A stretch of DNA of 64,000 nucleotides from Escherichia coli (GTDB lineage: Bacteria; Pseudomonadota; Gammaproteobacteria; Enterobacterales; Enterobacteriaceae). Of the stretch, positions 37,030-37,252 are shown piece by piece (the first letter of the stretch is position 1; each line of letters begins with the position of its first letter). Where the stretch lies: the NCBI RefSeq assembly GCF_003790525.1, contig NZ_CP033635.1; one strand, 5' to 3'. A model generated the notes under the pieces. That model made no database searches. It saw only the letters and a program-made list of their open reading frames with translations, and had not been told where the DNA came from. Both the position numbers and the translations under genes were made by a program.

Positions 37030-37135
37030 AGTCCTGTGGATAAATCGGGAAAATCTGTGAGAAACAGAAGATCTCTTGCGCAGTTTAGGCTATGATCCGC
37101 GGTCCCGATCGTTTTGCAGGATCTTGATCGGGCAT
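37030..37135 (+). promoter_or_regulatory. dnaA promoter region: DnaA box and GATC (Dam) cluster
   Basis: tgtggataa (reverse of TTATCCACA) at ~37035..37043 and four GATC sites within ~40 bp (37094..37129) upstream of the dnaA GTG start. Confidence 0.8.
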
Positions 37136-37252
37136 ATAACCGCAGACAGCGGTTCGTGCGTCACCCTCATGCAGGGTCTTTTCGACGTACGTCAACAATC
37201 ATGAATGTTTCAGCCTTAGTCATTATCGACTTTTGTTCGAGTGGAGTCCGCC

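Follow-up and report, generated by a model that had tools for sequence, protein, structure and literature searches.

A dnaA promoter and leader region matching that of K-12 in an SMS-3-5-like Escherichia coli chromosome

The window, by which we mean the whole 64-kb stretch of DNA analysed here, is collinear with the genome of E. coli SMS-3-5 at 99.997% identity, and end-to-end alignment to the reverse complement of that genome (NC_010498.1, about 4133650–4197649) shows a single mismatch. It spans atpG, at the left end, to yidJ. From the left end the genes are atpG, atpD, atpC, glmU, glmS, the lpf-O113 fimbrial operon, pstSCAB-phoU and an island made up of hypothetical genes and 'type III effector' genes, followed by yieH, adeP, yieF, yieE, yidZ and mdtL, and then by tnaB, tnaA, tnaC, mnmE, yidC, yidD, rnpA and rpmH. 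To the right of rpmH lie dnaA, dnaN, recF and gyrB, and the order runs on through ibpAB to yidJ. The context expected of a dnaA promoter is present, with yidC-yidD-rnpA-rpmH on one side and dnaA-dnaN-recF-gyrB on the other. A 1-kb segment around the promoter finds a match in 5424 of 5426 complete E. coli genomes, with at least 99% identity in 5242 of them.

Two stretches of the window are strain-specific by the SMS-3-5 annotation. The one at ~16549–23404, between yieH and phoU, comprises a gene for a 'type III effector protein' and two large hypothetical genes, and the other, at ~6316–11295 between pstS and glmS, is the lpf-O113 long polar fimbria operon. The yieH-phoU interval of K-12 presumably contains cbrBC, yieK and the bgl operon instead.

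The first-pass annotation of this DNA placed a divergently transcribed rpmH about 600 bp from dnaA, and rpmH is indeed on the minus strand, with 606 bp separating its ATG from the dnaA GTG. The dnaA GTG start mentioned in the same annotation is at 37253–37255, in agreement with RefSeq for both the SMS-3-5 locus and K-12 dnaA, and it is not the first in-frame GTG given by the ORF tool (37241). The spacer between the two genes also contains the small ORF ysdD, the translation of which (MTIDKNWLNRSNKDPGRSLRFTRQPV) differs from that of K-12 at one residue; a literature search on ysdD gave only papers unrelated to it. Three upstream GATC sites (36904, 36914 and 36925) lie within ysdD, and many Enterobacteriaceae and Erwiniaceae share their spacing (−349, −339 and −328 from the dnaA start). 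About 100 bp 5' of the rpmH ATG, a strong sigma-70-like match on the minus strand (TTGACT-17-TACAAT, 10/12; 36749–36777) is probably an rpmH promoter. The features of the region are listed in Table 1.

Table 1. Features of the rpmH-dnaA region (positions are those of the window).
Feature	Coordinates	Strand	Basis or remark
rpmH (ribosomal protein L34), divergent neighbour	36506..36646	-	ORF list; RefSeq annotation of the SMS-3-5 locus and K-12
ysdD, small ORF of 26 aa (K-12 b4757; 'hypothetical protein' in SMS-3-5)	36876..36956	-	Annotation; rpmH-dnaA spacer
Complete GATC cluster (9 Dam sites over 226 bp)	36904..37129	.	SeqA sequestration target in the K-12 literature
Candidate dnaA p1 -10, TACACT, start site near 37021	37009..37014	+	Inferred; GGATCGTTTACACTTA kept across Enterobacteriaceae genera
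DnaA box 1, exact consensus TTATCCACA, high affinity	37035..37043	-	Pattern search; identical in K-12; 'box 1' between the promoters in PMC5835720
Weak DnaA-box-like 9-mer TTTTCCCGA, 2 mismatches	37045..37053	-	Between box 1 and box 2; orientation as box 1
DnaA box 2 candidate TTTCTCACA, 1 mismatch	37056..37064	-	Orientation as box 1, 21 bp start to start
AGATCT in the p2 -35 region, contains GATC 37070	37069..37074	.	
dnaA p2 -10 hexamer TATGAT, overlaps GATC 37094-37097	37091..37096	+	Published description; TATGATC in 105/109 regions
GC-rich discriminator CCGCGG ('Travers box') of p2	37097..37102	+	PMC5835720 (Figure 6 legend and text); PMC466948
Three closely spaced GATCs just 3' of the p2 start site	37107..37129 (37107, 37120, 37126)	.	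Main SeqA-repression sites in the K-12 literature
Weak Shine-Dalgarno GGAG	37243..37246	+	
dnaA coding sequence, GTG start	37253..38656	+	ORF list; RefSeq annotation of SMS-3-5 and K-12; GUG start in the literature

Alignment to the K-12 dnaA promoter, the check proposed in the first-pass annotation, shows that MG1655 is identical at 222 of the 223 bases in 37030–37252. The sole difference, at 37170 (T here, A in K-12), is in the leader and outside every mapped or described protein site. Over the longer interval of 36640–37270 there are 8 differences in 631 bases; the other seven are SNPs upstream, in 36820–36993, that leave the known sites unaffected, and those at 36991 and 36993 are in a poorly conserved stretch just 5' of the presumed p1 -10. 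The locus and its neighbours are the same as those of the K-12 promoters dnaA1p and dnaA2p, and box 1, the box-2-like site, the nine GATCs, TATGAT, CCGCGG, the GGAG Shine-Dalgarno and the GTG are all unchanged from K-12.

The K-12 dnaA promoter has been the subject of extended study (Hansen et al. 1982; Speck et al. 1999; both as reviewed in PMC5835720), and further literature on its sequence is given in PMC4585315. Hansen and Atlung describe two dnaA promoters, 9 GATC sites in a 225-bp stretch, and a consensus DnaA box (box 1) that sits between p1 and p2; box 2 and the intervening DNA are protected by both DnaA-ADP and DnaA-ATP, and the further sites a, b and c bind ATP-DnaA only (PMC5835720). 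GATCs are found in the p2 -35 and -10, with methylation enhancing p2 two-fold; the description also includes a GUG start, a weak ribosome-binding site (GGAG) and, ahead of +1, the CCGCGG 'Travers box' (PMC5835720). Both SeqA sequestration and DnaA-ATP repression are known for this promoter (PMC5835720, PMC466948). Iuliani et al. report two effects of DnaA bound at boxes 1 and 2: when DnaA-ATP is low it activates p2, and when DnaA-ATP is high it nucleates a repressing oligomer (PMC466948). Five GATCs matter at p2, namely those in the -35 and -10 and three closely spaced after the start site, and mutation of the latter three (m3SeqA) removes SeqA control, with its SeqA-dependent delay, of a dnaAP2 reporter (PMC466948).

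The layout of the region agrees with these published p1/p2 elements, and the first-pass annotation was right to describe it as a textbook dnaA promoter, Dam/SeqA-sensitive and DnaA-regulated. We find a box between the promoters, weaker predicted boxes in the same orientation, the -35/-10 GATC pair, three downstream GATCs, the discriminator and the gene context, and no evidence contradicting its identity as the dnaA p1/p2 promoter was found in this analysis. The annotation simplifies when it speaks of DnaA autorepression, which holds at high DnaA-ATP; when DnaA-ATP is low, the protein bound to boxes 1 and 2 activates p2 instead (PMC466948).

The DnaA box that had been reported on the complementary strand at about 37035..37043 is an exact TTATCCACA on the minus strand, at the same base positions as in K-12; the plus strand reads TGTGGATAA. 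Taken alone this box is statistically unremarkable, because the 2 exact copies in the window compare with a chance expectation of 0.51, and 6 of 100 shuffles contain as many. The other exact copy (30318–30326, plus strand) is inside tnaB, which is annotated as a pseudogene with an internal stop in SMS-3-5, and a consensus-class box, TTTTCCACA, is found at 38001 within the dnaA gene. The AGATCT of the p2 -35 region is reportedly an ATP-DnaA 6-mer, as Speck and Messer are said to have described in 2001. Box 1 and the two weaker predicted boxes share one orientation and are 10–11 bp apart. The candidate with one mismatch is probably the site named 'box 2' in the published description (PMC5835720, PMC466948), and its CTGTGAGAAA core is kept across genera; the 9-mer with two mismatches would then be part of the protected DNA reported between box 1 and box 2.

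GATC sites occur between rpmH and dnaA at 36904, 36914, 36925, 37002, 37070, 37094, 37107, 37120 and 37126. The first-pass annotation counted four within about 40 bp; the sites at 37094, 37107, 37120 and 37126 do span 36 bp, but a fifth site in the annotated range, at 37070, was left out of the count, and four further GATCs lie just upstream of that range. Nor do the four make up one functional group, since 37094 is in the p2 -10, 24 bp from 37070 in the p2 -35, and the other three follow the start site. The nine-site cluster has the highest GATC density in the window when measured over 40, 60 or 250 bp; over 100 bp it is equalled by a group of sites within the dnaA coding sequence. This second GATC-rich stretch (37951–38200, plus strand) has 8 sites in 250 bp, with 5 in 100 bp from 38041.

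The density of these sites was compared with two null models. Under a first-order Markov null, groups of 4 sites within 36 bp, of 5 within 60 bp and of 9 within 226 bp are absent from all 100 simulations. When the 282 GATCs observed in the window are placed uniformly, 9 in 226 bp arises in 5 of 5000 trials and 4 in 36 bp in 504 of 5000. The evidence from the four sites by themselves is therefore weak, and that from all nine, together with their conservation, is strong. The frequency of the four-site group, which turns up somewhere in about 10% of uniform placements, and the fact that an exact TTATCCACA is an ordinary find in 64 kb, with an extra copy in tnaB (2 vs 0.51), are the observations that would suit an explanation in which the box and GATC cluster are chance intergenic occurrences with no regulatory role. 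Against this stand the rarity of the nine-site cluster, the match to a K-12 region that has been dissected experimentally, and the comparison with other species.

For this comparison dnaA loci were retrieved with a degenerate pattern in the coding sequence (codons 6–16) and not with regulatory DNA. Of 120 Enterobacterales genomes retrieved, the 108 with at least 400 bp of upstream sequence were used. An exact TGTGGATAA is present on the same strand in 107 of these 108 other species, and in 108 of 109 regions when the window is included; the sole region without it (L091) has one mismatch. The p2 -35/-10 pair of GATCs, 24 bp apart and starting 35–38 bp after the box, is found in 101 of the 108 box-carrying regions (window counted). 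An alignment of twelve genera contains invariant or near-invariant blocks, CCTGTGGATAA, CTGTGAGAAA, GAAGATCTC, GCTATGATCCGC and GAGTGGAGTCCGCCGTG, separated by sequence that drifts, and the footprints correspond to boxes 1 and 2, the -35 and -10 elements and the discriminator. With the exact box kept in nearly every region at a fixed distance from a conserved GATC pair, chance occurrence is effectively refuted by the cross-genus conservation; we consider it to have almost no probability and reject it. Published work also contradicts the idea that mutants of the box or the GATCs lack a phenotype.

The assignment of the two promoters draws on both kinds of evidence. K-12 p1 is, we assume, placed about 82 bp 5' of p2, and from this spacing and from its conservation the TACACT at 37009–37014 probably drives p1. 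The p2 start site would be just 3' of the discriminator, near 37103–37105. A scan of 36450–37350 for sigma-70 consensus promoters and for terminators called neither p1 nor p2, its sole find being the minus-strand match 5' of rpmH, and the promoter positions therefore rest on the literature and on conservation. That a consensus scan should miss them is as expected for weak or regulated promoters.

The GATCs downstream of the start site behave differently from those of the promoter itself. The post-start sites shift in position between genera and a count of about 2–4 is kept; since the sites move and the number persists, selection appears to favour the GATC motif as such, in its capacity as a SeqA/Dam target. 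A different account would have the GATCs kept mainly for reasons other than SeqA, with those in the -35 and -10 serving as RNA-polymerase contacts and the downstream three forming part of a 5'-terminal inverted repeat or hairpin, CCCGAUCG...UGAUCGGG. The -35 and -10 GATCs are invariant in position and reportedly contribute little to SeqA repression (Kedar et al. 2000, as cited in PMC466948), the minimum free energy (MFE) and centroid folds of the leader both pair 37104–37111 with 37125–37132, and initiation synchrony remains without the three downstream sites (Wilkinson et al. 2006, as cited in PMC466948), all of which this account would explain. However, it does not predict that the downstream sites should move and their flanks change across genera while their number is retained, nor that mutating the three should remove the SeqA-dependent reporter delay (PMC466948), and shuffled sequences give folds as stable as that of the whole leader (z = −0.43). 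We regard it as improbable as the main reason for the conservation of these sites. SeqA roles and promoter or RNA roles of the GATCs are not mutually exclusive, and a partial contribution of the latter is possible. The inverted repeat around the three post-start sites, CCCGATCG...TGATCGGG (37104–37132, plus strand), is a possible 5'-terminal hairpin of the p2 transcript and is present in both the MFE and centroid folds.

The first-pass annotation took the region to be near the replication origin without including it. This is borne out: oriC is on the far side of mnmG, which puts it at least 7.8 kb outside the window's left end and about 45 kb away from dnaA. Many bacteria have oriC next to dnaA, and the segment might on such general grounds be seen as part or a remnant of an origin, as in Bacillus, where oriC is formed by clusters of DnaA boxes on either side of dnaA. 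DnaA boxes and a high GATC density are marks of oriC too (PMC5835720). However, the segment has only one consensus box and 2–3 weak ones, no strict GATCTNTTNTTTT 13-mer and no oriC R1/R4 context sequence occurs in the 64-kb window, and no AT-rich unwinding element is evident in the sequence of 36300–37500. A looser version of the 13-mer has a single match, at 56992, about 20 kb from the dnaA promoter. On this negative motif search the presence of oriC inside the window was rejected. The two 250-bp stretches of the window with the most GATCs, 9 and 8, are the dnaA promoter and the dnaA coding sequence. With these features absent and oriC lying some 45 kb away, an origin remnant at the dnaA promoter is exceedingly improbable, and this reading was likewise rejected.

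We conclude that the region is almost certainly the native dnaA p1/p2 promoter and leader of an SMS-3-5-like E. coli chromosome, working as in K-12. The cis elements, the near-identity to K-12 and the conservation in Enterobacterales are observed directly; DnaA binding, repression and SeqA sequestration would be expected at this locus by analogy, from literature on a K-12 sequence that differs at one base. On that model, DnaA would bind box 1 and the weaker boxes of the same orientation (37045–53 and 37056–64) upstream of p2, and at low DnaA-ATP the bound protein would stimulate p2. As DnaA-ATP rises, the bound DnaA would seed an oligomer over the p2 -35 and -10 (37069–37096) that shuts off both p1 and p2, giving negative feedback on synthesis of the initiator. 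Passage of the fork about a minute after initiation would leave the nine GATCs hemimethylated, and SeqA would bind them, chiefly at the three post-start sites, and silence the promoter for a fraction of the cell cycle, until remethylation by Dam. Full methylation of the -35 and -10 GATCs would also raise p2 activity about two-fold, and the CCGCGG discriminator would be expected to make p2 sensitive to ppGpp.

Two other chromosomal elements resemble this promoter in part. E. coli oriC has 11 GATCs in 245 bp. It is like the dnaA promoter in its about ten-fold over-representation of GATC, its sequestration by SeqA after replication and its R-type DnaA boxes (PMC5835720), and differs in having several high- and low-affinity boxes and AT-rich 13-mers and in being sequestered for longer (about 1/3 of the doubling time, vs 1/5 for dnaA). 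The mioC promoter, which adjoins oriC and is outside the window, has five boxes within or close to it and, like the dnaA promoter, is repressed by DnaA-ATP through one consensus box and several closely spaced weaker ones (PMC5835720, PMC4585315). Unlike the dnaA promoter, it is not sequestered by SeqA (PMC5835720).

The dnaA promoter is central to control of the cell cycle, combining autoregulation of the initiator with sequestration coupled to replication, and its arrangement is already known, having been established decades ago for an essentially identical K-12 sequence. Its value here is as a positional anchor, in that it identifies the window as origin-proximal E. coli chromosome and shows that this strain has kept the control region of dnaA intact. 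New knowledge might come only from a hairpin in the leader.

This hairpin, AACCGC-AGACA-GCGGTT (37138–37154, plus strand), is 17 nt long with a 6-bp stem and a 5-nt loop, about +35 to +51 from the p2 start. The MFE fold of the leader and the centroid fold both contain it, and RNAalifold, applied to 85 leaders, retains 4 of its 6 pairs, the core, as the sole internal helix of the consensus. With the six-pair model, 86.8% of cells pair, vs 83.0% in shuffles (0 of 500 reach the observed value) and 22–40% in slid controls. Double changes number 20 cells against 6.4 expected (0 of 500 shuffles), and the covariation score is 0.194 vs 0.164 (2 of 500 shuffles), the control statistics being ones that ignore phylogeny. 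Compensatory variants include AATTGC/GCAATT in Citrobacter and Enterobacter, and AACCGT/ACGGTT and AACTGT/ACAGTT in Yersinia. The hairpin is kept in Enterobacteriaceae, Erwiniaceae and Yersiniaceae (from Escherichia to Yersinia and Erwinia) despite nearby insertions and rearrangements, and it survives ~50-nt insertions just upstream in Salmonella and others. Support for it is moderate, since the helix is short and the double changes may represent some three or four events.

The inverted repeat might instead be a palindrome at which a protein binds the DNA. This fits less well than an RNA structure, as the symmetric compensatory changes and the excess of sense-strand G.U over A.C in the four core pairs (27 vs 9) are better accounted for by pairing in RNA. 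If so, the hairpin may be a selectively maintained RNA structure that affects the stability, processing or translation of dnaA mRNA, adding a post-transcriptional layer over promoter control; this is a tentative suggestion, and we think it somewhat unlikely. A functional hairpin would bear on the short life and poor translation of dnaA mRNA. The whole-leader z of −0.43 makes no case for a large structured leader. A search of Rfam at E≤1 with 36400–37500 returned only a meaningless viral match (16.7 bits, vs a gathering score of 100), a literature search for a stem-loop in the E. coli dnaA leader returned only work on Caulobacter, Bacillus and Sinorhizobium, and the sections on dnaA expression in the review PMC5835720 make no mention of one.

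We note two further features of the leader. A second hairpin, ACCCT-CATGC-AGGGT followed by CTTTTC (37164–37178, plus strand), holds the K-12 difference at 37170 in its loop; its stem is kept in close genera, with covariation not seen. The ~50-nt leader insertions are found in L075, L097, L070, L118, L085 and L100 (Salmonella, a Citrobacter isolate and others), where they lie between the post-start GATC cluster and the first hairpin and carry extra GATCs, and the first hairpin and the sequence downstream of it are retained.
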